A stretch of DNA of 64,000 nucleotides from Lama glama (Eukaryota). Position numbers and translations under genes: made by a program. The stretch lies in NCBI GenBank assembly GCA_028534125.1, contig CM052849.1:20460001-20524000 (forward strand). Direction: 5' to 3'. The stretch's first letter is position 1. Every line of letters begins with the position of its first letter. Below, one piece after another: positions 29,201 to 54,718 of this stretch. A model generated the notes under the pieces. That model was not told where the DNA came from and made no database searches. It was given only the letters and a program-made list of their open reading frames with translations.

Positions 29201-32136
29201 CCTCTGCCCCCTTCCCGAGCCTGCCTTCCGCGTGTCCGGGCTTGTCCGTTTCCCTTGCCGTGTCTCTGCTGCACCCTGAGTAATGTCCTCCAGCCCACGC
29301 CCCTGCGTTCTCTTCGGTCACATCTAGTCTGCTGTTAAGCTCGTCCATGGAATTTCGATTGTGGTGATTATAAGTATTTTATTCTGAGGCATTCTGTTTG
29401 TCTTTATCTCAAATCTGCTTTGCGTCTGCAGTTCCTTGTTCTGCCCGCGTTTTCAGGCCGCACAGAGTGGCACACTGCGTTGTGTGTGCCTGGTAACTCC
29501 TGTTGGAAGTCGTGATGCATCTGATTTTACTTTTTTCTACCGTTCTTGCTTCAGGACCTCTGGGGGTTTTGTCTCTGTCGTAGTTGTTTTCTCGTGAGCT
29601 GGTTTTCCTTGAAGTTCTGCTTGTGGCAAGGCTCTGAGGTCTGGGTTGAAGGTGGGTTCTTGCTTCTGCTGGGCTCCCATGAGCACGCTGGGGACCACGT
29701 CAGCTTTGGTATCTCTCAGTCCAGGTCTCCTCCTGCCCTGCCCGGCCCTGGCCCGAGGCAGGCGACTTTCTCGCAGACCTTTGAGTGACAGGATCACAGC
29801 TGCGAGGGGTGTCGCATGGCCCTCCCCTTAGCTGCTCCTGAGAGCAGGTGCAGACTTGGTCTCTTGTCTGCCGCCCTGGGAGACTGTGAACCCCGGCGCA
29901 AGGCTCCCGCGCAGCACGTGGGGCGCCCTCCGCGTGGCCCAGGTCCCTGCTGTTGCTCAGGGTTTGGAGCCCGGAGCTCTGCACTCATGCAAGTTATCGA
30001 TGCACTTAAGATGTCACCTTAGTCTTATCTGTGGTGTCTCAGCTTTTCAGTGGCTGCCAGTCTCAGGTGTGGCCCTTGAGCCTGCGGTGGTGTCTGCTTC
30101 CCATCAGAGGAACGCGCGGGGCTCAGCCAGGTGTTCTCCTCGCCTCAGTGAATCCGGTTTACAGGATTTTAAGTTACGATAAACTAGTGAATGGCTTCTG
30201 ATTAACCTCAGTTTCCATAATGAGAACTTAGTTGACTCAGAGCTTGTCATTTACATAATGCAATTTCACATGTTCTCCAAGTTATCTTGGGCAAGACTTT
30301 ATTTCCATCCCTGTTCTATCGATTAGTAGACCCGGGGTGGGGGGTGGCTTCGCGGCCTCCAGCACCTTCTGCGATCCGGTGCCCCCGCAGCCCCGAGGGG
30401 GCACAGTGGCCCCTTATCACATCAAGGCAGCGATGTATGCTTGTCTGCAAAAAGTGACCACAGGGTGGGCAGTTCTGCTTTCTAAGGGGGAAGATCTCAA
30501 TCATGATGAAGAAAAACGTAGAAAAATGATACAATAACAACTTGAACATTTTGGCACACCTGCGGATGAGGGCCAAGCCTTGGTATTGGTCTGAGCCAGT
30601 TCACGGTGGGGGCGCCTCCTGGAACGCCCGCCACCCGGACTTGAAGATGAGCTGCTGAAATATCTGACTTCCTCTTCAATTGAATTCTCTCATGTCAACT
30701 TCGAGTAGTTTTTGAAAGAAAAATGTGACGATCTGAAACATGAGGCCAAAGATGAGCTTCCAGTTACGTGTGATTACGGATCAGGAAGGCGGTTGCTGTT
30801 TGGCGTGAAGGTGGACTGACCGGCCCTCCCGGGCTCCGGGCAGTGCACCTTGAGAGGAGCTCCTTTGTGTCACCTGACCCTGGTTTATTTGGGGTTTTTT
30901 GGTGTTAAGAACCGAGAAGTATTTTGAATTCCGCATTTGGCTTTTCTTCTGTTTTGTCAAAGGTCGCGAAACTTCCTCAAGTCATGCAGCAGCAAACGCC
31001 CGTGGCCGGCATCCAGCAGGCGGCCTCCGCTCCCCAGCAGGTAGGACCCGGGCTCGCGTGGCTCTTGGGAAGTCCCCACAGTTCTGGGTGTCCAGCCAGA
31101 GGGGGTCAAATCTGAGTTATTAGAAAATCACTTTTGATTTTCACAATACAGAAAAAAAGTAACTTTGGGGAAAACACTTGATATCCTTAGACTAGCAAGA
31201 AAAAAACCAAGCAGATGTGCACAGATGCAGTGTCACGTGAGCTGCAGGGGCTCCTTCAGTCGCTCATCTCAGGTGCGTCCTCTCGGCTGAGGCCCCTCAC
31301 CTTCGTTCTGGGAAGACAGAGAGAGGACACAGTGCTCGCAGCAACTGTGGGTCTAGGAGTGGAAGTGCCCGGGGCAGCGTGGCTTCCAGCTTCTTACCAT
31401 TTTACTTGCTTCTCCGAAATGTGACTGTGTGTAAAAGTAGTGCTTTAACATAATTTACAAAGCGTGTGCTTAGCGTACCTGAGGTCCTGGGCTCAATCCC
31501 CAGCACTTCTGTTAAAAAAAAAAATTTAAATTTGCTCAAAATCACACTGGCATATAGATTTCAAGAAACCATATAGTGTTAAAAACTGACCCCACCCCCA
31601 GCCAGTCCCCAGACGCCAGCCTGGGCCTTCTCCCAGAGGCATCTGCTTTTAGTGTAAAAGCAACAATAGTTTAGTTTTACACTTTTGTTTGGTTGGAAAC
31701 CAGAGGTCGTATTTTGAGACATCGGCAGTTTTTACGTTTCACAGAGGCATTTATGCCGGTGAAGTTGCTGAGACTCGTCCCCCAACCCCAGGAATGTTTA
31801 ATTTGTCATGTCAGGCACATCACTTGAGCTACGTTTTCTAGGCCACGTGTTTCTGTTTTGGGTCAGGCTTCTCCGCAGACCGTGACCCTCACCCAGGCGT
31901 CGGCAGCTGGACAGCAGGTCCAGATGATCCCTGCGGTGACGGCGACGGCGCAAGTGGTCCAGCAGAAGCTCCTGCAGCAGCAGGTGGTGACCACGGCGGC
32001 CCAGCTGCAGACCCCCGGGGTGCCCACCCCGGCCCAGGTGCCAGCCAGCTCCGAGAGCCCCGGCCAGCAGCCCAAGCTCCAGATGAGAGTCCCTGCCGTC
32101 CGGCTGAAGACGCCCACCAAACCTCCCTGCCCCTAG
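2053..32136 (+). CDS. EP400: EP400 (E1A-binding protein p400, SWR1/INO80-class ATPase), 3' portion: helicase C-terminal lobe, SANT/Myb domain, polyQ and Q/P-rich tail; 26 coding exons, 5' exons lie before the window
   Basis: All exons are bounded by AG/GT and phases chain to 1300 codons ending TAG at 32134-32136. Exons: 2053-2255, 2338-2507, 3854-4050, 5480-5591, 5689-5832, 8038-8178, 8388-8471, 8756-8890, 9086-9130, 9394-9547, 9713-9954, 10062-10235, 11081-11217, 11351-11407, 13242-13320, 13445-13696, 14518-14563, 14637-14746, 20356-20563, 20694-20869, 22456-22674, 24416-24611, 25082-25206, 26177-26323, 30963-31040, 31867-32136. Recognised peptides include ELRLVQFDSGKLEALAILLQKL, DAKAQEWCDRIGR, EWLISEDWALLQAVKQLLELPLNL and QPKLQMRVPAVRLKTPTKPPC. 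Confidence 0.97.
2338..2507 (+). CDS. EP400: EP400 exon (GKLEALAILLQKL...SEQRQ)
   Basis: cctag| ... CAG|gtgag. Confidence 0.95.
3500..3632 (+). ncRNA. SNORA49: H/ACA box snoRNA SNORA49 (ACA49), intronic in EP400
   Basis: Hairpin 1: ccctcag 3502-3508 pairs with ctgaggg 3552-3558, and cagggcact 3517-3525 with agtgccctg 3536-3544. H box ACAGGA at 3560-3565, then a second hairpin closed by gagc...gctc, and ACA at 3627-3629 three nt from the end. Sequence and host gene match human SNORA49 as recalled. Confidence 0.88.
3854..4050 (+). CDS. EP400: EP400 exon (ELMRTFNRD...DVHIYR), helicase C lobe
   Basis: cacag| ... ACAG|gtggg. Confidence 0.95.
5480..5591 (+). CDS. EP400: EP400 exon (LVSGNSIEEKLLK...FLTQ)
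   Basis: cgtag| ... CAG|gtacc. Confidence 0.95.
5689..5832 (+). CDS. EP400: EP400 exon (RTIQELF...RPFIE)
   Basis: tccag| ... GAG|gtaag. Confidence 0.95.
7140..7700 (-). mobile_element. Degenerate L1 fragment
   Basis: T-rich antisense sequence resembling L1 ORF2/3' end; boundaries approximate. Confidence 0.5.
8038..8178 (+). CDS. EP400: EP400 exon (ALKSIEHLEED...ADFMGQ)
   Basis: ctcag| ... CAG|gtttg; not in the ORF track, read by hand. Confidence 0.92.
8388..8471 (+). CDS. EP400: EP400 exon (LTPIEKYALNYLE...SSE)
   Basis: aacag| ... GAG|gtaag; read by hand. Confidence 0.93.
8756..8890 (+). CDS. EP400: EP400 exon (GTMLTAVQEW...LTYTREDAYSA)
   Basis: gccag| ... GCG|gtagg. Confidence 0.92.
9086..9130 (+). 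CDS. EP400: EP400 exon (EYVCEGADGQTEVMP)
   Basis: cgcag| ... CCG|gtgag. Confidence 0.92.
9140..9390 (+). repeat. C-rich low-complexity repeat, CCCCAT/CCCCTT-like
   Basis: Fills almost the whole intron 9131-9393. Confidence 0.85.
9394..9547 (+). CDS. EP400: EP400 exon (LWTPPTPPQDD...KTDPS)
   Basis: tgcag| ... TCAG|gtggg. Confidence 0.95.
9713..9954 (+). CDS. EP400: EP400 exon (AGRKKKQRH...DWALLQ)
   Basis: ctcag| ... CAG|gtgag. Confidence 0.95.
10062..10235 (+). CDS. EP400: EP400 exon, SANT domain (AVKQLLELP...REEGR)
   Basis: cctag| ... AGG|gtgag. Confidence 0.95.
11081..11217 (+). CDS. EP400: EP400 exon (SKNNRPLRT...PPIKPL)
   Basis: tccag| ... CCT|gtacg (weak donor, phase 2). Confidence 0.92.
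11351..11407 (+). CDS. EP400: EP400 exon (LGMNPFQKNPKHASVLAE)
   Basis: tgcag| ... AAG|gtatt. Confidence 0.93.
12798..12897 (-). mobile_element. tRNA-derived SINE, Vic-1 type
   Basis: A box CAGCTCAGTGG and B box GGGTTCAACCCC on the minus strand. Confidence 0.78.
13242..13320 (+). CDS. EP400: EP400 exon (GINYDKPLPP...AKEKK)
   Basis: tttag| ... AAG|gtgtg. Confidence 0.94.
13347..13407 (+). repeat. 23-bp G-rich tandem repeat, ~2.6 copies
   Basis: GGAGGGCGGGGCTGGGGGTGGGC units. Confidence 0.85.
13445..13696 (+). CDS. EP400: EP400 Pro/Gln-rich exon (ALADQQKAQQ...SAAVL)
   Basis: cgcag| ... CTG|gtgag. Confidence 0.93.
14518..14563 (+). CDS. EP400: EP400 exon (AGAIKTSVTGTSMPT)
   Basis: ttcagcag| tandem acceptor ... 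CGG|gtaag. Confidence 0.88.
14637..14746 (+). CDS. EP400: EP400 exon (AVSGNVIVNTIAG...GALT)
   Basis: tgcag| ... ACC|gtgag. Confidence 0.94.
15230..16750 (+). mobile_element. L1 ORF2 3' end and 3'UTR, degenerate
   Basis: tggatcacagacccgaatgtaaaacccaaaactagagaacttctagaagaaaacatagg is a typical L1 ORF2 segment. Confidence 0.75.
15881..16069 (+). mobile_element. Full-length Vic-1-type SINE with TSD, nested in L1
   Basis: GGAGGGTATAGCTCAGTGGTAGAG...GTCCTGGGTTCCATCCCCAGTACCTCC, A-rich tail; TSD aaagagtcttcag 15868-15880 / aaagattcttcag 16070-16082. Confidence 0.88.
18965..19184 (+). mobile_element. MER8-like TcMar-Tigger MITE
   Basis: TIRs cagtcgtccct... / ...caagggtcagctg followed by TA; internal aaaatccacgtgcaggtggacccgtgcag. 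Confidence 0.75.
19550..19668 (+). mobile_element. tRNA-derived SINE, Vic-1 type
   Basis: AGCTCAGTG...GTCCTGGGTTCCATCCCCAG...AACCTAATTACCTC; flanked by acatgg. Confidence 0.78.
20356..20563 (+). CDS. EP400: EP400 exon (TSGGSAPAQ...QVSQ)
   Basis: tccag| ... CAGG|gtaag. Confidence 0.94.
20694..20869 (+). CDS. EP400: EP400 polyQ exon (TGVQLPGK...GKLTP)
   Basis: tccag| ... CCG|gtgag. Confidence 0.94.
20753..20779 (+). repeat. Pure (CAG)9 encoding the EP400 polyQ
   Basis: Directly counted. Confidence 0.95.
21510..21697. mobile_element. MER3/MER33-like hAT-Charlie fragment
   Basis: cacatttcaagggcacagtggccacggtggctg...gcattggccagcccag resembles the MER3 terminus. Confidence 0.5.
22456..22674 (+). 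CDS. EP400: EP400 exon (EHLIKMQKQK...QVARL)
   Basis: ttcag| ... CTT|gtaag. Confidence 0.94.
23270..23470 (-). mobile_element. MIR
   Basis: caggtgcagaaatggaggcac..aagtaacttgcccaggg core. Confidence 0.6.
24416..24611 (+). CDS. EP400: EP400 exon (TRVPTSQLQ...QPQKAT)
   Basis: tctag| ... ACAG|gtgcg. Confidence 0.93.
24902..25070 (+). repeat. Degenerate tandem array of CCTGAC(G) plus G-run, 8 copies
   Basis: Copies at 24902, 24918, 24942, 24960, 24981, 25009, 25048, 25064. Confidence 0.8.
25082..25206 (+). CDS. EP400: EP400 exon (QTVVAQPVH...AVQQK)
   Basis: cgcag| ... AAG|gtact. Confidence 0.93.
26177..26323 (+). CDS. EP400: EP400 exon (ITAQQIAAQ...VQTQIQ)
   Basis: cacag| ... CAG|gtgag. Confidence 0.93.
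26780..27460 (-). mobile_element. L1 ORF2 fragment
   Basis: Minus-strand PPKLIYRLSA resembles L1 LPKLIYRFNA. Confidence 0.65.
28200..29550 (-). mobile_element. Old L1 ORF1 fragment
   Basis: Minus-strand MDELNSRLDVTEE, ORF1 coiled-coil-like. Confidence 0.6.
30963..31040 (+). CDS. EP400: EP400 penultimate exon (VAKLPQV...APQQ)
   Basis: caaag| ... CAG|gtagg. Confidence 0.93.
31464..31525 (+). mobile_element. 5'-truncated Vic-1-type SINE
   Basis: GTGCTTAGC..GAGGTCCTGGGCTCAATCCCCAGCAC plus poly(A). Confidence 0.7.
31867..32136 (+). CDS. EP400: EP400 last coding exon (ASPQTV...TKPPCP*)
   Basis: gtcag| ... TAG stop. Confidence 0.95.
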   Translation, partial: ASPQTVTLTQASAAGQQVQMIPAVTATAQVVQQKLLQQQVVTTAAQLQTPGVPTPAQVPASSESPGQQPKLQMRVPAVRLKTPTKPPCP

Positions 32137-34746
32137 TCGGGAAGGCAGGCGGGGCGGCCCCCGCGTGTCCCGCCGGCCAGCCAGGACGGGGTCGATTTTG
32201 CATACTGAACCGTGGGACCGCGTTACCCGAGAGGTCCGGCAGCTGTAGCACTGGTCCTCCGCCAGCGTCCCCTTTCCGGGGTTATGTGACTGAAAGTGAC
32301 AGTGACAACTTTTCCTAGATTGTTTTACGTTTTAGTTTCTCCTCCAGAGCAACAGTGCTGGGCCTTGAAAGCCATGTAGAATTCCTGTTAGTGCACAGTT
32401 CTGCACATCACAAGTAGCCATCTGGAATGTGCAGTGAGTCATAAAACGGACTTTGTGAAGCTAAAATGTGGTCTTTGACAGCATCTGCCTTTGCTTGGTT
32501 CTTTATACCAAATCAAAAATGCGTCACGGTCCCTGGAGAGGAGAAACTGATGGAGGCAGATCATCTCAGATCAGAGAAAATCAACGTGGCTTCTTCCCGC
32601 GTAAGATGTGGCTTGTTTGGACTTTTAAAGGAGGTATTCAGTGCTGATAGGCATTGAAGCACCTTCGTGACATGGCCCCACGAAGGGGAATGACCTGCGT
32701 TTGAATCTTCATCCCCAAGAGCAGCTGGCCTGGCGTCCCCAGAGTGACCTGTTGCCGGGCGGGCGGGCAGAACCTGGGCCGGCTCCCCATCCCCGCGCAC
32801 CCACTGTGTTTCCCGGATCTCGGATGCACTTGTGTGTGGACTTCGTGCCCTGAGGCAGCTCCAGAGCTGCTTCATGAGGCTCCCGTCCGGGGGTGGTTCG
32901 GGCCGGGTGAGCACTGTTCCGTCGAGGGGCGCTGCCATGGGCGGCGAGGTGGACACTCGGCAAGGGCGGTCCTGCCCGTCCCGCCCCTTTGCTTCCGTGA
33001 CCCGCGGGAGTGAGACGCCTCCTTGTACAGGTGGCTCGTGTGCGAGCCTGCGCAGTATTAGCCACGACAGTGGGCCTGATAACTCCTCACCCAGACTCAG
33101 GCTTCCTGCCTGCCAGGCCCTCCTGTGGGCGGGCGGGCTGCCGCCGGTTCTGAGTGGAGGAAGTGGAGAGCCGTCTGGGCGCTTGGGGCTGCGGGCACAG
33201 GGGAGAACCTGGGTTTGCAGCTGTGTTCCTGTTGTCACTACGGCCGGGTGACAAGCTGCTGTGTGGACTTCGCTGGCCGGTGATGCTTGCTTACCGGGAA
33301 GTTTCCGCCCACCCCCTGCGCTGTCTCCATGCCCCTGGACGATTTCGGTCCAGGAGGTCAGGCTATGTTAGGTCTGTGTGTAGTAAGGGTCAGTTCCGGC
33401 ATACTGAGAGACTTTAAATTCTTAATTTTAGTCAGTCTGTTTCCTCCCCCATCACATCACTTGAACAGACGCTAAGGAAAGGGTTCTGTCCTGTGGTTTT
33501 TGTTTCTCGTCAGTCTGTGTGGTGGTTGATGTCTTAGTGAAGCCAACTGGGCATCTCATTTCTGAGTTCTTGGTGAGAAATTTGGGTAAAAGTAAAAATC
33601 AGGTGTTAGGAGAGGAAAGGACTTAACATTCTGGTTAATTGAACACATCACAACAGAGCGCTGCAGTGGGCTTCCTAACCTGCCCATTGTGGTTGGGCGC
33701 GTGCCGCCGTGGGAAGGCCCGGCATGCGGGGTGGCTCTCTGGGCACCAAGGCAAGTTCCTACTCTTTGTTTTAATCCTCAAATGTGCAGAACTACAGAGG
33801 AGCCCTTTCTGCAGCGTATTTTCACCTGGGCACCCGCTGCTTTCCCTCTTGCCCATCGTGGGTGCTGATGCCTCTCTTCAGACGACGGGGAGACGTGCGT
33901 GCACGTGCAGACTGTCCTAACGTGGGTGCCCGGGAAGAAGTCCTCTGTTAACCTAGAGCCCTAGAAAGGAGTTTAGGAACCTCTCTCAAAAGCTTTCTAA
34001 GAGAACAGAGCTGGGGGGTTCTGAATATTTGCATTGTGGGGCTCCTGCTGTATCGTATTATGTGAGTGAAAGAGTTATTTTCTCCAGTGATTCCCTAACG
34101 CAGAAAATGGAACCGAAAATAGTTTACTTGTATCCCCCAGTAACATCTAGACGTCACCACTGCCCTTGTAGCCTTCGATAGTGTCGTTTAAGTAAGGGCC
34201 CTCCTCCCAGTGTGGTGTTCTCTTGGCCTTCTGTTTTAAAAGTTAAACTGTCCATATTTAAGAATTAAGTGTGAGTTTAGGAAGTGGTTGTCGGGGCTTT
34301 CTCAGATTCTTCTCGTTAGCAGAATCGCATGTTACCTAGCGGGACCCGACCTACTGGGCCCCTCCCCAGTCCCGTGGTGACGGCTGGGGGAATCTGCGGC
34401 TCATAAAACAAGGACTGCAGCCAAGACACCGTCAGCCTGAAACTGGCCACCGTGGAGGCAGTCACCCGGGTTTTCTGTGATTCAGAGATGTTTGTCCCAC
34501 GGAGGCCAGTCTTTGAGGACCCGTGGGCGGGAGTTTGGCTCGCGCGCACGTCACGTCCGATGCCTCCCGGGGCCGAGGCTCCCTTCCCGTCTTCCTGGTG
34601 TTCTGTCGGCCGTTGTAACCGGACAGCTGTCACGTTCTAAGGTATAAACGAGGAAGGCTGGACCTGTAAATACTTTGTAAACATGACCATTTGTACTTGA
34701 ACAGTAGGGTTTTAAAGGGCACTGATACCCCGCCAAACAAAAGGTG

Positions 34747-34752
34747 AATAAA
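34747..34752 (+). terminator. Probable EP400 polyadenylation signal AATAAA (3'UTR ~2.6 kb)
   Basis: AATAAA preceded by three TGTA motifs (34665, 34676, 34692) and followed by a T-rich tract. Confidence 0.65.
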
Positions 34753-37309
34753 TTGACCTTTTTATAAGCTCTTTTTTGTCTTTCATGGAAAACTAGTGTT
34801 CATGTTGAAAGAAGGTGCTGGTTTGTATTTATTTCATTTGCATGAAGAGAAAACAGGACAAAGCCACAAGGGAAACAAGTGGTGTGGGAGGCAGAGGTGT
34901 CTCTGCTGCTCCGCGCAATGGAAGAACTGGAGGGAACGAGGGTTTCTCGAGAAATCAGCGGCTCTCCCTGCAGAGACCACGCCCTCCAAGAGGCCACGCC
35001 CACCGGCCGGGGAGGAGGAAAGACCCGTGCGTCTAGCCTCGGTGCCACCGCTGCTGCCCGGTCCCTGCGTGACTTTTTAACTTCTCTTTCAGCAAAGTCC
35101 TTTTCCTTTTGTTGGGAAGAAAAAGCTCCTGATTACAAGCCACCCCCCCATACTCTATAAAAAGTGGACGCGACACAAAGTTAAGAAGAGCACAGGGAAT
35201 CCGTGGTTGGTTTTGCTGTCTTCCTCCCCGGCGCAGAAGCGGGGGCGCAGGGGCCCCGGCCTGCACCGCCTGCGCTCGGACCCGGCTGGGGGCGTGGCCC
35301 GGGCGTCTGGACTCAGGTGCCCGCCCAGCCATGGGACGGGGGTCCGGCGCTGCCGTCCCGCTCAAGACTCCTTCCCTCCGAGGTCGCCCCTCCCAAGGCG
35401 GTTGAAGCCGGTTGACGGTCAGGAAGCAGCAGCCTCTGGCGTCCGCGCTCAGTCGTGCTTGCTTTCTTCAGGACTGTTCTCGGCAGGGAGGTTGTGCGTT
35501 TTCAGAGCGCCGATCCATGGCTGTGACCCTGCGGTCACATGGCTGTCAGCTGTACACATGGCGGCAGGCCTAGGGGTGGGCTTATCTGGCCACGAGGCTG
35601 TATTTCTGTGCGTCCTAGTCAGGGCTGAGTCGCTCAGGGGAAGTGACCCTGCGGTGCGGCCACATGGCCCCCACCCCCGGCGTGCAGGGGCATCTAAATT
35701 CAGGTGAATGTGAAACCCGCCCTGCGGGCTCTCCCACAGGCCGTCCGACGTGACCAGCCTCCAGGTCTCACTTAGGTTTCTCTCGGCTCTAACCAGGTTC
35801 CGCGGTAGCCCTGCCAGCACCCTCTGCGCTGTCCAGACAGGCTGTGATCCTGGGGCCCTGGGGGAAGAGGGGATCTCGTCCACCACAGGCTCTGGTTGGC
35901 AGCCCTCCCTTGCTCTGCCCACGGTCTGCACCGTCCACGTTCCAAAGCAAACTAGCCTTCAAAGCTCTGTTTTCCTGGACAAGTCAGCACACCTGCGGCC
36001 AGTGGTGCTGGCGTGTCGCTGTTAAGAACAAAGTCGAGCTGTGTAACCTGGGCCGCAAGTCCTCCAGGTGTAGGAGTCGGAAGGCACAGTCCGTGTCTGT
36101 GCGCCTGGATGTGCATGCAATATCCCGAAGGCTGTTGTGGCCGGAGCTGCAGCAGCCGCAGTGAGTGAGGGCGGGCGGCAGGTCCGCGCCGGGGCAGGGG
36201 TAGGGTGTGATGGCGGCGCGGCCCTCTTTGGGATCCTGGCCCCGACGTTGCCCCTGTGATGCCCCCAGCTCCTCCTCAGCCCTCATGGGAGAGTCGCTCG
36301 CCTTGGTGACACCCACCATGGTGACCCTCGCCCAGCCAGCAACCTCTGCCCTGGTGATCATCTCCACAGCCTGGAGCCCCCCAACCCCCCACCCCAGTAC
36401 CCTCCATCCTCATGACGCTCACCCCCACGACCCGGATCCAGGGATCCTCCTCCCAGTGACCCCCGCCCTGCCAGCCCAGGAGGCCGCTGTCCACAGCGCT
36501 GACACCGCTGGTGCCGCTGGTCAGGGTGTGGCGTCCAGGGTTGCAGTGTCTCCCCTTGGGCAACCCTGACGGGAGTCTGTCGAGAGGGACACCACCCCAC
36601 CCCTACCCCTGGAGGCCTTGCCCAGGACAGAAAGCAAGAACTGGGGACACCGTTACACTGAAGACCAAGAATCGCACATTTTAAAAGACAATAATTTGGC
36701 CCAAAAGCTGAGTGAAGATTCCTTCCTCACAGAAAACTGGTTTAGCTACTTAGTTTGCAGAAGGCCCGCTGGCACTGGAGTCTTAGCTTACTTGCAGAGA
36801 TCCAGGCAGGTTGGCTGACCAGTTTCCGGTCCGTCGGACTGGATGAACCATCCCCTGCTCCGTGGGGCCATGTCGGAGAGTGACACGTGCGAGCAGTCCC
36901 GGCGTCTGCAGAACTGAGGGCGTGGAGGACCTCAATACACGGAACTTACTTTCCAACTGCGGTCTTGGGTCTTCAACTTCCCAGGCTTTGTTCGTTGAGT
37001 GGCGACGGCCAACGCCGACAAAATGACAGAGGTATTGCACACATGTTTCTGTAACCTCTGCCAAACTAACAGGTGGTTAGTTTATTTGTAAAAGTCTCTA
37101 CTTAATGTTCACATCGAGGTAATAGACAGAACTTTCTCCTCTGAAGGTAAGCAGCAGACACAGAAAAAGAGGTTTTCTGAGGACAGTGTAGTACAGAGTA
37201 CTCCTGGGCCCGTGGCCGCAAAACTGAAGTGATGATCACGTTAAAACTTAAATGTAAATGATCATCGTTGTAACAGTTTTCATCACAGATGATGAAAAGT
37301 GGTAAAGTG

Positions 37310-37713
37310 TTTTTTTTTTTCAAATTGGAGTAGTCAGTTACAATGTGTCAATTTCTGGCGAACAGCACAATGTCCCAGTCATACATATACATACGTATGT
37401 TCACGTTCATATTTTTTTTTTCATGAGGGTTATTACAAGATACTGAGTATAGTCCCTGTGCTCAACAGAACAAATTTGCTTAATCTATTTTTATATGTCG
37501 TGGCTAACATTTGCAAATCTCAAACTCCCAAGTTTATCCCCTCCCGCCCCCTTTCCCCCAGTAACTGTAAGATTGTCTGTGAGTCTGTTTCTGATTTGTA
37601 GATGAGTTCCTAGTGTCCTCCTTTTTTTCTTTTTAAGATTCCACATGAGTGATATCATATTGCTATTTTTCTTTCTCTTTCTGGCTTACTTCACTTAGAA
37701 TGACCATCTCCAG
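37310..37713 (-). mobile_element. L1 3' end, 5'-truncated
   Basis: Poly(T) followed by L1 3'UTR (gattccacatgagtgatatcat...tttctggcttacttcacttagaatga). Confidence 0.8.
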
Positions 37714-37897
37714 GTAAAAACAGTAGTTTTAATATTTTAAAGTTGATACTGGAATGCGGGGCCCTTGGGAGGTGCTGGGAAGATCGCCCATTTGTTAGGT
37801 GATATTTACATATTTTGAAAGCATTAAAAGAATGCTTTTCAGGAGTGACCCTGAGGACCATGGGGCACTTGCACATTCTGTCAAGAACGAAACATTT

Positions 37898-38186
37898 TAT
37901 TTCTTTAAACTTTTTTATTGAGTTATAGTCATTTTACAACATTGTCAAATTCCAGTGTAGAGCACAATTTTTCAGTTATACATGAACATATATATATTCA
38001 TTGTCACATTTTTTTTCGCTGTGAGCTACCACAGGATCTTATAATTTCCCTGTGCTTTACAGTATAATCTTGTTTATCTATTCTACATTTTGAAATCCCA
38101 GCCTGTCCCTTCCCACCCTGTGCCCCCTTGGCAACCACAAGTTTGTATTCTATGTCTGTGAGTCTGTTTCTGTTTTGCATTTATGT
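37898..38186 (-). mobile_element. L1 3' end, 5'-truncated, with TSD
   Basis: TSD agaacgaaacattt 37884-37897 / agaacaaaacattt 38187-38200; ggcaaccacaagtttgtattctatgtctgtgagtctgtttctg. Confidence 0.85.
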
Positions 38187-38510
38187 AGAACAAAACATTT
38201 CAAAGTGATTCTTGGTCCCCTAAAAGTTTTGGGGACCCCACCACGTGGCAGAGATTGGTGAAGGAATATGGTTGGCGCAGTGTGACGGTGCTGAGGCATT
38301 TTAAGCAGAAGGAAAACCCAGCCCCTGCTAAAGGTCCCGTTTTCCTGGACAAAATCACCACACCTACCTCTGAGGCACAGAGCGATGCTGGTAAGTGGAC
38401 AAAGCAGAGCTGTAAACCTGGAATGGGGAGCTCTCCCCCAGGTGCAGCAGTGAGAAGGCACAGAGGTTCGTTTCATCGCAACTGCCAGAGGTTACATACT
38501 CGTTTCTGGC

Positions 38511-38601
38511 TTTTTTCCCCTTAATGGAGGCACTGGGAATTGAACCCAGGACCTCATTCACGCCGAGTCCCTGCTCTACCACTGAGCTGTGCTCCCCGCC
38601 C
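38511..38601 (-). mobile_element. tRNA-derived SINE, Vic-1 type
   Basis: Minus strand CAGCTCAGTGGTAGAG...GTCCTGGGTTCAATTCCCAG. Confidence 0.8.
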
Positions 38602-38649
38602 TGCTACTGGCTAATTTCTTTGACTTCTTCAGATCTCAAGATAGTCAGG

Positions 38650-39470
38650 AAAACTTTGATTTGCCAAAGTAAATTTTTTTGTACCTTGAAATTGGCATAT
38701 TTTCAAATTAGTTTTTAAATATTATAAAGTACATCCTCATAAGAATTCAAACAACACAGAAAAATAAGAATTCCTTTCTCTCCTGGCCTCCTCAGTCCCA
38801 TTTACCCCACCCCCAACCCCACTTTTTTTCCCTCTTCACTTAGCAATAGGTCTTCAACGTCTACTCAAGTCAGGAGATAGATTTAAAAAAAAAAAAACAC
38901 TATTTTTACAGCTGCATAATTGTCCACAGTGAGCAGATACCGTGTTTATTCGATTATTCCCCACAGACGGGTTTCACTTTGTGCCCGACTTCTGCCGCTG
39001 CGAGTCATGAGCATTTTTACATGTGGTTCCCGGTACTTGCCTTCTGTAGGCTAGATTCCCATTAGTGGGAACTAAATTGGGAGAATGGGTCAGGGGACGT
39101 GTACATTTAAAATCTTAGTCGGTGTTGACAGGGTATTTCCCAGGAAGTTACAGCCGCTTACATTCCTCTCGGCCACGCGCAGGGGCCTCTGCTGTGTGAA
39201 GCTTCGCCAGCCGAGCGAGCCGGTGGCAGGGCTTCCCGCCCCTGCAGAGGCCGCCTGTTCCTCCCCGTTTCCCTGTAAGCTGCTTTCTGACTGGCTGGGA
39301 GGAGCTCTTCGCTGTTAGGGGTGGTGCCCCTCTGAGGCTGTAAGTCACATCCCGCACATACCTTCCCCGACTGTTTTGTGTTTTGACCTTCGTGTTTTCC
39401 TTTGTGGCATCTGGGTTTCCTGTCGTGCTTATCAGGGAAGTTTTCACTCTCCCAGGATTAGAGAAATACT
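38650..39470 (-). mobile_element. Old L1 3' fragments abutting the EP400NL relic
   Basis: L1M-like antisense stretches, ending cccaggattagagaaatactctcct. Confidence 0.5.
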
Positions 39471-39596
39471 CTCCTGCAGCACCTTCGAGGGAATGTGATG
39501 GCTGGCTTAGCTTCTAAGAAACACTCTGCCCCGTTACGAGCTTACCTGAGGCAGAGTGACTGGGCCCTGGAGGAGCCTGAAGCTGTTAACGACGAG
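39471..39596 (+). pseudogene. EP400P1: Relic of EP400NL/EP400P1 (duplicate of the 3' end of the large EP400 N-terminal exon)
   Basis: Translates LLQHLRGNVMAGLASKKHSAPLRAYLRQSDWALEEPEAVNDE|gtaaaa, against recalled EP400 N-terminal [37 protein letters not shown]...EVINDE. Same strand and position as human EP400NL, between EP400 and DDX51. Confidence 0.8.
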
Positions 39597-40812
39597 GTAA
39601 AAGTTCCCGGGCTTCATTACCTGTTGTGGAAGTGGGTGGCATGGCCTATACTTACACAAGTGCACCTCACAGCTGCATCGAGACATTCTCCTTTCACACC
39701 AGAACCACAGTTACAGTAACTTGAGGATGGGTCTGGGACCCACACACAGCTGAGGCCACCCGCACCCATGTGCCAGCGAGGGGGTCGAGCCACTCACTCT
39801 CTGCACCTGCCCTTCCAGTTCTTCCCACACTGTTCCAGGCTGTGCCGCGCAGGGTGGTGGCGCCCAGAGCCCCCTCAGCAGTGCCCCTCGCAGGTAAGTA
39901 CCTGGAGCTGGGAATCCTGAACACGCACATCTCAGCGTCGAACCCTGCCCTGCACTGTCCCTCAGGGCCCCAGGCCTTGGACCCCGGCACGCACCCAGCG
40001 TGCCAGGGCTCGCCCACGTGACGCACACCTGCACCACGCGTCCCCTCGGGTGACAGCCAGCACACAGGACGTGAGGGCCGGTGTGTCGATTGTCACTCTG
40101 CTGACGCAGGTGATGCACCTTCAGGCAGAGACGAAGAACCTCGGTCGACTCCGATTCTACGTGTGTTTTAACGCCAGCACGTGAGTTTCGGAAATGAGGC
40201 TTTCTCACCGACAGTGGTCAGCGCCCTGAAGCTCGTTTTCTGTTCACGTGATGGAGCCCATCTCGCTCCGAGCTTGTCTCCCACGGTGACAAGTCGTGAA
40301 GCAAAGCGTCGGTGACCACAGTGCAGTCCTGATCTGTGACACCTCGTGAGGAACAGTTCCTTCCCGGGTCGGCTGCCCAGGGCCAGCGGGTCCCCAGCTG
40401 GGGCCTGGCAACACCACCTCACACACGGGAGTGGGGCTCATGCCCCGAAGCACGGAACCCAGAGTTACCCCGAGGCCAGCCCCCACCTTTCAGCCAAACA
40501 CACGACAGACGCCATCCAGTCAGTTCTGAGGCAGTTTCAGCTGGTTCACTAAAGCCTCATTTCCAGAAAAGCCCCGAGTGGAGGCTGACCTTGTGCGTCC
40601 TCAACGGTCCCCTGGCGGGTCTGGTGGGGCGATGAACGCACGGGTCCAGGGGTGTGGCTGAGGCGGCGAGCTTGGGGACAGAGCCCTTTCCGAGGAGGAA
40701 TCCCTGTGATTTGCTCCCAAGTCCAGCAGCCAGCATTCAGATGTTTCCAGAAAGGAGGTGGAAACCCCATCAGAAAAGGACGGACCCCTCCAGGTCCACC
40801 CACAGCCCTGGC

Positions 40813-40839
40813 CTAGGCCGCCTTCTGCTTCTGCTCCTC
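40813..40839 (-). CDS. DDX51: DDX51 exon 15, coding part (EEQKQKAA*)
   Basis: cgcag|GAG...GCC TAG. Confidence 0.9.
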   Translation of the reverse strand, partial: EEQKQKAA

Positions 40840-43800: not shown

Positions 43801-46800
43801 AGGAGCCCCGAACCCGCCTGTCCAAGCCCTGCACACACTCAGGCTGAAGAGGCCGCAAGGAGGAGATCCCACAAGCCTCTACCTTCTCCTGGCTTCTCAG
43901 CCCCCCACGAGGCACGCTCCACTTGGCCTTACAGGAGTTGAGAAATACACACCAAAAGGCGCCACTCCCGAAGCCAAACGCCCAGAGACTTGCCGCGGTG
44001 CCAGCTGGGCCTGCGACCCCAACTTCCAGCCCCTGGGCGCCTGCTTGCTCCTCTTTGGAAGATGAGGTGCCCCCTCTCCTGACGGTGTGACCCGAGCACT
44101 GTTAGCCCCGGAAACGGCCAGCCCCGCCGCAGGATGCCTTGTCTCAGCTCCATCCCGCTGGGGCCGTAAGCCCACCCCCACCCTCCTCCCATACACCAGA
44201 GCCCCTCACCTCACTCTCAGCCCATCAGAAATCTGCTCCCCCGCTCCTTTGTGTTCACAGCCCCTTCCCCAGTAACAGACGCTGCACGCTCACCCCCGAG
44301 CTCACACAGGCACCTCTTGTCTGTGTGGCCCGCTGTTGCCAGCAGCAGCGTATCTGTTACACTTTCCTTTTGTCTTTGGTAAATCCTTTTACTGCCGACG
44401 ACACTGGCCCACTGTGTCCACCAAACATTTGGCAGCCCGTATGGGGAACCCCCAAAACATGGGGGACTCCAAAGGTACACGGAGCCTAGGGGCAGATCTC
44501 TCTCCCCCACTTCATACTGCGGCCTCTCCCCTGAGCAGGAGGCCAGACGGCCGGGGCGGGCTTCCCTGCCCGCCTCTGCTCTGCTCTCTCTCACTTCCCC
44601 TCCCGCTGCTCCCTAGTGTTGGGGACTTCTCCCAAGTCCTGCCGAGAACTGAGGACCTCCGGCTGGGCTGCTCTCAGCAGGCTCTGAAACGCGGTCTGAT
44701 GGACGGGGGTGACCCCTGCCCTGACCTCAGGAACGCACACAGGAAGCACCTTCCTTCTCTACCTCCTCCACCCGCTTAGCTCTTGGCTACTACACAGCCC
44801 GTCCCTGGGCCAGAGGGGGCTCTGCATCTCCCCGGGGAAGGCACACATGAGGACTGGTCGTCCAGTGCCTTGAGTCACCCAGGACCCTGTCTCCTGGTCG
44901 GCCCCAGACACGTGAGAGGGAAAGGCGGGTCCAGCGGGTAAAAGCCCTTCTCCCCACAATCAGTGCACTCCCATACGGACTTTCCTGCTCCCGCTCTGCG
45001 GTCTCGGAGCCCAAGAGCCAGATGCTGTCCTCCTGCGTCTCCTCCCACACCGCCTCTGCGACCACGACGCGTCAGAGACATCAGCTGAGTCTCCTGTCTC
45101 CAATCCCTGCCCAGGCAGAAGCCCCCAGTGGGCGAGGTGCGGCCTTTCCCTCTTTCTAAGCTGCTCAGCCCTCGCGCTGGTCTGGCCTTGGCACTGACCC
45201 CTTGGCGCTAGTGGGATGGCTCCTTGAGCCCCCGCGCTGGTCTGTTTCTCAGCCTCTCCGCTGGTGGCCTTGGCACCGGCTTTGGCCCACGTGCCGGCTG
45301 GCTTCCCTTCCCTGGGGGACACCCAAAGTAAAAGGACGCCGGAGGTTTGGCCTCTCTTTCTGGGGCAGATGCCCCAGAACAGCCTGCTGGCTCCCTCTCT
45401 GCTACCTCCCTTAACTGCCACGGGAGGCGCTGCTTCTGTTCCCCGGGACTCACTGCTGGGTGCATTTTGAAACACTGGAGTAAGTCTGACTCCCAGACAT
45501 TGGGAAAAAAAAAGCAGCTTGTCTTTTTCTGTAATGTCACCTGGCCCCAGTACCAACTTCCAGATCAGGAGACCCGGCCCCTTCGGGGACCCTGAAGTCT
45601 AACACTCTTCTCCAGCTTGATTTTCTGTCGCCAACTGGGCAAACGGTCTGAGGTCCCCTGTGTCCAGGCTTTTACAGTTCTCTCCCCAAATTCGGACCTT
45701 CGTGAAAACTACCGTATGTGTCTCTCCCGATTCTTGCAGACCCCGCCACACTCCAGTCCCCGTGTGCCCGATGATCAGCCAGACATTCTGGCTGACCCCT
45801 CCTCTCTCGGGTTCCTAACGACAACCAGACGCCTTCTCTACAGCCTTCACTGCCCACTCTGCCTCCGACCGCCCCAGCTCTGGGACTGCTTCGTCCTCTG
45901 CCTCTCCCCCGCCCCCTCTCCCCTTGGGCCCCTCGACGGCTGAGTACCGTTCCTGGTCCCCGCTCTGTATCAGGGCCCCTTCTCCCCACCACACGCTGGA
46001 CCAGGTGTTATTTACAACACAGCAGGACCGGCACCCCCAGTCAAGATGGATGTTCCAGAAGTCCCAGAACAAGACAGCACGCTGCCCCCTCGTGAGGTCA
46101 CTGATGGGGAAGTGGGCGCCGTTCGGGGCCATGGGCCTTCTCTGTGTCAGGACCCTCACAGACACAGGCCAGGCTAGGCTCTTTCAGCCAGAACGCGTCT
46201 CGCTTCATACAGGAGTTCCAGGTCCTCACCGCCTTTGACTTGAGCCGGCAGGACGTACTTGTTTTCACCACCTGTTGTACTAGTGGAGAAAAAGCCGCAT
46301 CTGGTCCTCGGTCAGCGCTGGGCTGACGAGGTCCACGCTCGAGCTGCCCAAAATGCCAAGCCTGGGAAGGAAGCAGATCTCCACTGGACGTACAAGAAAG
46401 GGGCCCCGGGAGCGAACGGCGCAACCATGTGATTGCCTCCTTGCTGGAAGGGATGAAAAAGGCTGTGGTGAGACCTGTTAATTATACTGAACTGAGAGTG
46501 ATCTTTCAGACACCTGATGGAAGTCCAGCCCTCCTCCATTCCAGGTTGGCGGAAGCCACGTGGAAGTGCCCCAGTCGCAGCCCTGACAGCCCAGGGGGCC
46601 CCGCGACACGAGCAGCTCATTTCAGCCGCCCGGCGTCCCCACACACCAGACAACAGCTTCAGGAGCTTGACCACGGCCCACAGACGCCCCTCCTGTCCTG
46701 TCAGGTGTGGCTTCCAGGTCTTTACCGACCGGGCAGAGACACCGAGGGGGAACGGGAAACGGGAGGGACAAGCAGCAGAGTGAACACCAGGCCTCCAGGA

Positions 46801-49800
46801 CTGCCAACGCCCCGCAGGCACCCACTCAACCGGCCGCAAGCACAAGCGTCTGTCCGCAGGGAGCCCCGCCCTGGACAAGACCGTCTCTCTCCCTTGTCAA
46901 CAGGCTGGGCATCCCAGTCCACACTGCGGGGAGGCCCCTCCAGGCCTTGCCCTGTATGCAAGGAAAAGGGTCACTGGAGGCCGGACTGCCCCTCTCTCCT
47001 GGCGCGGGATTGGGAGGGCCACCCCAGAGCCAAGGAGCCCTGTCAAGGCCGAGGCCCGTGCCCCAGGGCGCGCCTGCGGCTGGAGCCACAGAGGCCAGCA
47101 GGCCCCCCAACTCCGTTCCTCGACTTTGAGGAGCCGGGCAAGTACCGAGGGGGGGGGAGTGGCCCTCCCCCGGCCCACGGGGCCCAGAGGCTGTGGCAGG
47201 AAAGTCAGTCACATTTCTAGCTGACTCGAAAGACACTTACACCACCGGAACTTCACGTTTTCCTAGACCGAGCTGCCGGTCCTGGGTCCTCCTTCCTGGC
47301 ACAGACGGCCATCCCCAGACTGGCCGATCAACCCCACAGTTACCCAGGACTCCAGAAAACTGATTTTCACTCCCACGCTCCTTGTCCTCCCGAACGCCCC
47401 ACAACACTAGAGACCAAGCCTCGCGCCCACCCCCACTTCCCAGAGTCAGCCCCTCGGCAGCTCAGCCCTCAGCCCTAAAACACACAATCTGCTAAGGCCA
47501 GCAAGCACCTCAGAGGCCAGCGACAAGAGCCAGACCTGGCTAAGCCGGTGCAAGTCCAGATGAAAGAACCTAACTTTCCCTCAGGAATCTCAGTGACCCC
47601 TTTCCCCTGAGGAATCTCAGTGACCCCTTTCCCCTCAGGAATCTCAGTGACCCCTTTCCCCTCAGAAACCTCAGTGACTCCTTTCCCCTCAGGAATCTCA
47701 GTAACCATTTCCCCTCCATATACTCAATAGCGTTTGAAGCCTGCGGCCTGGAGGGGCCTCCGGTACCTGTTTCTTGCATTCTTGTCATTGCCATGCAACA
47801 CTTGATCCCACCCGTATAAAAGGCGGATGGGACGTATGGGTGGCTGAGCTCACGGCCTCCGTGAGGCTGTGGTCTCCACACACCCACTGGGCAAATCCCT
47901 GACAGTCTGGGCAGAGTCCCGCTCAACCCTCTGGTACTGTGTGAGACCTTAAGGAGGCCTTCCTCTGCATCCTGGACACCCTCCCTCCCAGTTTCCTTTT
48001 GCTCTTGAAGCAAGATTTACAAACTGAAGTGTCCCAACCGTCAACCTGGACAGTCCCGTCCCAGGGGGTCAGAGACAGCCCCCATTTATCCGGACGAGCT
48101 CTAGCAAAGGATCTCTCTGCTTCGGTTTTCCCCGGCAGGGCCTTACCTCTGTATTTAGCAGACTTGCCAACGTGTAGCCTTGATAGAGTCTTCTGACTCA
48201 AGCACCATAATGGCACTACAAAAACCGGCCTCACGTGGGGATAAAGTCTCTCCCTCTGAGACCCAAACATGCACTCACAGGGCACAATTCCTGGGCCTCA
48301 CAGTAACCCCAGGAACAATGGGTTTGCCAGTCCAGAGAAACAGACTACTCTAGACACGGGGACCCCAGAGCTTTCCTGGGAATGGCAGGGTTTTGTAGGG
48401 CCTGGACACCCCGGTTTGGCCTCACAGCAAAGCTGCTCCACGCAGCTCTACAGGGACCAGAAAAGGAGCCCTGAGATGGACCAGGCACTGCAAACCCTCT
48501 AACAGACCCCCACAGCGCCCCAGCTTTAGCTCTGCCTAATCTACAAAACCCTTTCTCCTGTTCGTGCATGGAATGCGGGGTTGCCCTGGAAGTCCTTCCA
48601 CAGGACCCACCAGGCGGCCTGGAGCATCTCTCTCTAAAAATCTGGATCCTGTGGCCCAAGGAGGGCCCCGTGCCTCAGACCTCTAGCTTCTGTAGTTGAA
48701 GAGGCTTCAAAATTAACTCTGGGGCAAAATTAACTGCCTACCCGCCCCATCAAGTAATGGGCATTCTAAATTCAAAGCCTTTTCACTGGGTCTCTGACAG
48801 TCAGATCACCAAATAGCGAACGTTCCTCTTAAAAACTCCTGAACTCATGATTAAACAGTGTCAAACCCTCAGCGCAGCCCCTTCACTTCCTGACCCAGAG
48901 GCAGACTCCTCTACTGAACACTCATGCCTTCAGATACTAGATCTGACTTGTGCTGCTAGACCAGACTTACAAGGTAAGCCGCTCGAGGACCCAGATGACA
49001 CCTGGCTTCCTGGTGCTGGGAGTGTTATGTTAAATGGGGCTCGACTGTCCGGTTACACCTCTGTGAGCCTTGCCAGTGCTACAGAATCAGGGCCTCCTCC
49101 CGGAGGCCCCTCTTCTGCTCAGAAGGCTGAACGCACAGCTCTCACCCGAGCTGTGCAACCAGGGGCAGGAGTGAGGTTAAACGCTGACACTGACTCATCA
49201 TGCGCCTTCCGTGTTGTTCACACACATGCCGCCATCTGGTGAGAAAGGGGTCTTCTCACAGCACAAAACACACCCACCAGACATGCTTCGGAAATCTCAG
49301 ACTTGCTGGAAGCTGTAAATTATGCTTCCTACACATGGCAGTGATTCCGTCAAGCGCATCAAAGGGTAACGTGAGATTTCCCGAGAAAAATCACAAAGCA
49401 AACAGGCCAGAGAAGCGGCAAAACTTCCCACTCAGGCAGCTTTACTTCCAACCCGCATGCCGGGGACCCCTCAGCACACTGAGGGAAAATGCAGGAGGCA
49501 ACAAACACGGGACTCACTTTCACTCCTGAAGATGGCTTAAAAGCCCTGAGGGTAATGGTGACTCCCAAGAGCCTGAGCACAGAAAGCGCCACAGAACCTC
49601 CACGAGTCCGCCCCTTTGGGGGCAAAGGCCCTACAGGACTTAACACAGCCTCCGTTCGCGGGAAAGGGGACTTCTCAGACCCTGCGTGACACCTCCCACG
49701 CACGCCCAGTTCGTCGCCGGGTTAATAGCGAGGGACACGTTAGGCCACCGCCTCTCCTTCACCCAGTTCAGAGAAGAACCTCAGCCACCAGGACAGGACT

Positions 49801-54218: not shown

Positions 54219-54718
54219 NNNNNNNNNNNNNNNNNNNNNNNNNNNNNNNNNNNNNNNNNNNNNNNNNNNNNNNNNNNNNNNNNNNNNNNNNNNNNNNNNN
54301 NNNNNNNNNNNNNNNNNNNNNNNNNNNNNNNNNNNNNNNNNNNNNNNNNNNNNNNNNNNNNNNNNNNNNNNNNNNNNNNNNNNNNNNNNNNNNNNNNNNN
54401 NNNNNNNNNNNNNNNNNNNNNNNNNNNNNNNNNNNNNNNNNNNNNNNNNNNNNNNNNNNNNNNNNNNNNNNNNNNNNNNNNNNNNNNNNNNNNNNNNNNN
54501 NNNNNNNNNNNNNNNNNNNNNNNNNNNNNNNNNNNNNNNNNNNNNNNNNNNNNNNNNNNNNNNNNNNNNNNNNNNNNNNNNNNNNNNNNNNNNNNNNNNN
54601 NNNNNNNNNNNNNNNNNNNNNNNNNNNNNNNNNNNNNNNNNNNNNNNNNNNNNNNNNNNNNNNNNNNNNNNNNNNNNNNNNNNNNNNNNNNNNNNNNNNN
54701 NNNNNNNNNNNNNNNNNN
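54219..54718. other. Assembly gap, exactly 500 N
   Basis: Run of N. Confidence 0.99.

Follow-up and report, generated by a model that had tools for sequence, protein, structure and literature searches.

In the human genome EP400NL lies downstream of EP400 and before DDX51, and the corresponding place in the llama raises the question of how much of an EP400 duplicate is left there, to which of the known copies it belongs and whether it still does anything. The window, a stretch of 64,000 nucleotides of Lama glama contig CM052849.1, carries the C-terminal exons of EP400 up to the plus-strand stop codon at 32134-32136, which an AATAAA follows at 34747, and a minus-strand DEAD-box helicase gene with its stop codon at 40813-40815, so that the two stop codons are 8.7 kb apart, as had been noted before. 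The helicase gene, which received no name from PDB or Atlas searches and only the Pfam matches DEAD and Helicase_C, is by synteny presumably DDX51. The candidate relic at 39471-39596 is located downstream of EP400, on the same strand and before the helicase gene, as expected for the EP400NL locus. The EP400-helicase interval contains no N, the sole N run of the window being at 54219-54718 (500 bases).

Human EP400NL adjoins EP400 (review, PMC11462934), is expressed, with peptide support (PMC12679747, PMC11601488), and has been described in a preprint as a coactivator encoded beside EP400 with exons 'highly conserved across mammals' (10.1101/2021.05.30.446361). It forms the TINTIN complex with BRD8-MRGBP-MRG15/X; the BRD8-binding fragment corresponds to EP400 aa 194-446, and short EP400 isoforms are considered possibly redundant with EP400NL in TINTIN in that work (10.1101/2021.08.11.456009).

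The plus-strand frame at 39471-39596 translates as claimed, and its identification as a relic of the EP400 N-terminal region holds, with a match to Pfam EP400_N (PF15790; 33.2 bits, E 3.4e-8, gathering cut-off 27) and to human EP400 aa 393-432 (E 2e-6), while in a word search the 42-aa piece gave no match. It derives, in decayed form, from an EP400 duplicate, of which it is the 3' end of the large N-terminal coding exon (roughly EP400 aa 392-445), and it borders on the ancestral splice donor GAG/gtaaaa (39597-39602). That the donor has been kept, as stated in the original prediction, is supported by the large exon of a distant EP400 locus, L001, which ends at the identical codon (GAG/gtaaga) and has 92 of 126 bases in common with the relic; L001, one of three non-mammal-like loci from a metagenome scan, was used for the exon boundary only. 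The proposed size of 126 bp, correct for the exon part, falls short for the relic as a whole. Homology continues past the donor to around 39680, with an equid exon-plus-intron frame aligned over 77 residues (tblastn, E 3.5e-14) and a gap-free match of the intron start at 39597-39680 to an equid EP400-like intron read-through (P0040/P0263), which gives, as exon end plus 84 intron bases, a length of at least 210 bp. Intron sequence and exon boundary are thus both kept, traits of an unprocessed pseudogene.

Upstream of 39471 an apparent EP400 extension, a REVF look-alike, was rejected, as 80 of 300 random pieces score equally well; with no EP400 homology there, the 5' breakpoint is placed at about this position. 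The flank at 38940-39470, the left limit of which is approximate, is what the original prediction had called L1-like sequence joined to the relic. We would also take it to resemble an old antisense L1, but the claim found no support, as there was no match in PDB, Pfam or the window itself, searches which old L1s often escape; a FAM177 match on this flank was below the cut-off and set aside as chance.

Searches with tblastn, using 126 and then 17 EP400-family proteins, returned one credible EP400 N-terminal match in the EP400-helicase interval, and profile searches of 32137-40813 for the 5' exon body, the cassette exon, the next exon and the HSA exon found none above reversed or intron controls. 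The near-total deletion postulated for the old duplicate is supported, no other EP400 N-terminal piece having been found in the interval. Weak, roughly collinear tblastn matches at 35237-36755 (E 0.3-0.9) were no better than reversed or intron controls. The strongest donor-like site of the interval, CAG/gtaagt at 39893, has possible acceptors at 39777 and 39819 (39777-39899); as a cassette-exon end, with upstream codons faintly alike, it was discarded as no EP400 profile matched. The idea that a 36-aa insert arises via a second donor proved wrong, the insert being a separate exon.

The intron start also bears on the gene to which the relic belongs. From a collection of 293 proteins, those that read at least 20 residues past the donor provided, spliced products excluded, 47 distinct tails, a set lacking the closest controls, namely the horse EP400 intron and the llama's own EP400 intron, which is the main gap of this comparison. 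In donor-anchored alignment the equid EP400-like tail was identical at 10 of 27 positions with a score of 56, a value reached by none of 5000 shuffles, and the next best of the 47 tails scored -8. The tail of a close relative, P0002, scored higher than the equid copy (13/27, score 71), and P0002 and P0006 (5 and 1 contigs) share the deletions of the relic. Neither the nine mammalian EP400-type tails nor the primate EP400NL intron tails matched the intron of the relic. Because of the intron match the equid EP400-like gene and the relic are likely old orthologues, and the EP400 duplicate is, on the same sequence comparison, likely older than the split from horses.

The equid gene, annotated as 'putative EP400-like protein' in donkey (XP_044632050.1) and horse (XP_070076576.1, XP_023503139.1), is represented by NCBI models of 253-631 aa, those of the horse being 503-540 aa. 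It is a separate paralogue, characterized by its short E tract, by a cassette exon followed directly by the HSA exon as in monkey EP400NL, and by divergence of this HSA exon, which is nearly identical among the EP400s of vole, tiger and bird. The donkey models P0040, P0129 and P0254 show an apparent frameshift in the large exon, where the models of horse, Przewalski's horse and zebra read through; ongoing loss or assembly error are both possible causes. Relic and equid gene are alike in the exon end, the donor and the first 84 intron bases, but in the equid models the exon is complete and is accompanied by the cassette exon and an HSA exon, whereas about 210 heavily substituted bp are left in the llama. 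Human EP400NL/EP400P1 (Q6ZTU2) contains the same EP400_N segment and likewise adjoins EP400; unlike it, the relic is without four fifths of the BRD8-binding fragment, and the intron tails of the two do not align.

We consider it probable, with a good deal of confidence, that the relic is the decayed exon end and intron start of a second EP400 copy, which is likely orthologous to the equid EP400-like gene and probably to human EP400NL, that deletions likely removed the rest and that it is probably functionless. The course of events would have started with a tandem duplication of EP400, possibly of the whole gene, in an early placental, after which gene conversion would have rewritten the exon body time and again, with the exon end and the later exons diverging. 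In the llama lineage the duplicate would have died early and then drifted neutrally, and at least two deletions would have removed, on the upstream side, some 1.1 kb of the exon and, on the downstream side, all later exons. The frame of the relic may still be open since it is short and since both deletions it carries lie in triplet runs.

The age of the duplication is where this reading meets its most serious competitor, a duplication restricted to Laurasiatheria which gave rise to the relic and the equid gene, with independent duplications of EP400 at that same site in primates, lemurs and afrotherians, so that there would be no orthology to EP400NL. In an exon-body tree built from 19 proteins, the relic not among them, the horse copy falls, on starred branches, within the laurasiatherian EP400s, the golden mole copy is grouped with the EP400 of elephant, and an EP400NL clade is rejected (p-AU 0.003). 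A laurasiatherian deletion is common to the horse copy and EP400, and the unmatched primate intron tails point the same way. Rejection of the clade indicates either gene conversion or repeated duplication. Repeated duplications account for the tree, but leave unexplained why a short E tract is retained in the copies of horse, lemur and simians, in place of the long tract with K in the eutherian EP400s seen (the elephant model being unreadable at this tract), and why the next exon in the primate copies is opossum- and gecko-like while that of the eutherian EP400s seen is derived. As late independent copies would inherit the derived states of EP400, these retained ancestral states speak against separate duplications. 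Both the tree and the ancestral states would be accounted for by one old duplication with later gene conversion, which we infer to have occurred; a Laurasiatheria-only origin appears improbable.

The exon body groups by lineage, the exon end and the next exon by paralogue, a pattern expected under gene conversion between EP400 and its duplicate. The gene tree that had been suggested as a check was run on the exon body and recovered no EP400NL clade, but the test is confounded because the horse copy itself clusters with laurasiatherian EP400, and given the conversion pattern clustering with EP400 is no proof of a recent copy. Hence rejection of the EP400NL clade lowers the probability of orthology, yet conversion would give the same result. 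The original proposal that the duplication predates the split from primates accordingly survives in part: an old duplicate and shared descent of the relic with primate EP400NL are likely as judged from these sequence patterns, even though the unmatched primate intron tails and the rejected clade weigh on the other side.

Further back, the duplicate may originally have been a whole gene. The Lemur catta 'E1A-binding protein p400-like' (XP_045390686.1, P0264; 3077 aa) combines an EP400NL-type N-terminus, the feature it has in common with the relic, with HSA, SNF2 and helicase C domains and weak Myb matches and is, unlike the relic, an apparently full-length paralogue; it is 67-69% identical to vole EP400, compared with 75-77% between bat and vole. 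There is perhaps an even chance that a whole-gene tandem duplicate of EP400 existed in the placental ancestor and has remained full-length in the ring-tailed lemur, has been cut down, in simians and horses, to an N-terminal decoy and has shrunk to 0.2 kb in the llama lineage, with conversion keeping the big exon like each lineage's own EP400. In literature outside subscription journals and preprint supplements no paper was found on the history or loss of the EP400 duplicate.

That the sequence is instead a recent small copy of the llama's own EP400, or that assembly collapse hides an intact EP400NL, is very unlikely. Exon 2 of the llama's own EP400 lies outside the window and hence outside the comparison, which leaves some room for a recent copy, but 14 of the 42 residues of the relic differ from every intact copy, which excludes its belonging to an intact gene collapsed in the assembly, P0002 and P0006 show the same decay, the interval is, as mentioned, free of N and the intron matches the equid paralogue.

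These 14 residues are replaced relative to the states common to the horse copy and eutherian EP400, compared with two in the horse copy (a three-way majority ancestor counted 15 replacements in the relic), and many of them are invariant from gecko to mammals. Compared with L001 and the horse copy there are in addition two in-frame deletions, 3 nt in an AAG run and 18 nt in a GAG run. In simulation a neutral distance near 0.2 produces about 14 changes, and the intron match, which implies a distance of about 0.5 over both branches, is in line with this exon estimate. The frame is indeed open over its 126 nt, as originally emphasized, but this is no more than chance provides: given the observed decay it stayed stop-free in 35-52% of neutral runs, 4692 of 17102 stretches of 126 nt in the interval (27%) are stop-free likewise and the intron of the relic is itself open for 40 codons. 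Residue differences between the window and P0002 are similarly frequent in exon (2/33) and intron (4/37; Fisher p 0.68), both exon changes carry the window away from a conserved residue, and the end of P0002 is frameshifted. The neutral test was made on differences at the protein level, with a closest-codon ancestor and under a simple model of substitution, and 42 codons provide little power. The tests, weak singly but all in one direction, are consistent with neutral evolution, and the relic is probably without function. Over 39498-39707, five of the six residue differences from P0002 require a C in the window where the relative has T, which would fit GC-biased drift in this region.

With only the last fifth of the BRD8-binding fragment left, the relic cannot work in the manner of EP400NL, and a functional role of another kind, spliced as a 117-nt exon (39480-39596) or translated as a 73-aa micropeptide, is hardly credible. 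Such a role could appeal to the kept donor, to a frame that both the window and P0002 keep open and to the predicted ATG frame at 39498-39719, which comprises the exon end plus intron read-through and has a start codon with G at -3 and +4. On the other hand, the proposed ctcctgcag acceptor (39471-39479), which is present as described, consists of coding F-L-Q codons (TTCCTGCAA in L001) at the 5' deletion breakpoint with AGs close upstream, and its score of 1.47 is below 14 of 17 acceptors of EP400 introns inferred by protein-guided search, some of which are possibly misplaced, and among the 589 AGs of the interval 130 do as well. The donor is middling, 15 of the 17 inferred EP400 donors of the window scoring higher. 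The interval contains 13 exon-like acceptor-donor pairs as good, the relic included, the plus strand has no AATAAA or ATTAAA between 39597 and 44000, and replaced invariant residues, decay at the neutral level and the frameshifted end of P0002 complete the case against the spliced exon, which is left without support, and against the micropeptide.

The first canonical minus-strand AATAAA downstream of the helicase stop lies beyond the relic, at 38945-38950; if this signal is used, the predicted helicase 3' UTR would run antisense over the relic. That pairing of such a UTR dampens EP400 is, however, just as implausible, since the weaker AATGAA at 39613 is reached from the helicase stop before the relic, there is no sign of selection, the coverage by the UTR would be incidental and the pairing imperfect. 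A sequencing-run listing contains the region 38800-40800 in 20 of 24 rows, with a share of at least 0.96 in 14 of them, four of which, from two studies, carry no flag as possible source, and five RNA rows and one guessed RNA row cover 0.20-0.25 of it, where a short transcribed part and a diverged relative are indistinguishable; none of these shares counts as evidence here.

Taken as a decayed remnant of the second EP400 copy, the relic is an ordinary dead fragment and apparently an instance of ordinary gene loss by deletion, with value as a marker. With the class of unprocessed duplicate-gene pseudogene fragments it shares the copied exon and intron, a decay consistent with neutrality and truncation by deletion, and its one unusual trait is how small a piece has survived of a gene for which a function is reported in humans. 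It also indicates that the EP400 duplicate can be lost, contrary to the conservation across mammals stated in the preprint (10.1101/2021.05.30.446361). Under the whole-gene scenario the llama lineage would represent a natural EP400NL knockout in which TINTIN is formed via short EP400 isoforms or not at all. The relic further offers a natural test of whether these isoforms can replace EP400NL in TINTIN, as raised in the work on that complex (10.1101/2021.08.11.456009). How the duplicate has fared across mammals is a better lead than the relic itself.

Several other features of the locus were observed. Just past the EP400 polyadenylation signal, a GC-rich stretch at 35001-35500 with a CpG observed/expected ratio of 0.8 carries motifs of GC-box type and, at 35316, a donor-like site, and could be a promoter relic of the EP400 duplicate. 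Two segments of about 150 bp, at 35959-36107 and 38329-38484, are 69% alike and probably represent two copies of an old repeat. One helicase-gene intron contains an old provirus-like insert (44177-51271), bounded by direct repeats at 44177-44419 and 51014-51271 which are 76% identical, with Gag p30 and zinc-knuckle matches in the frame at 46327-47217.
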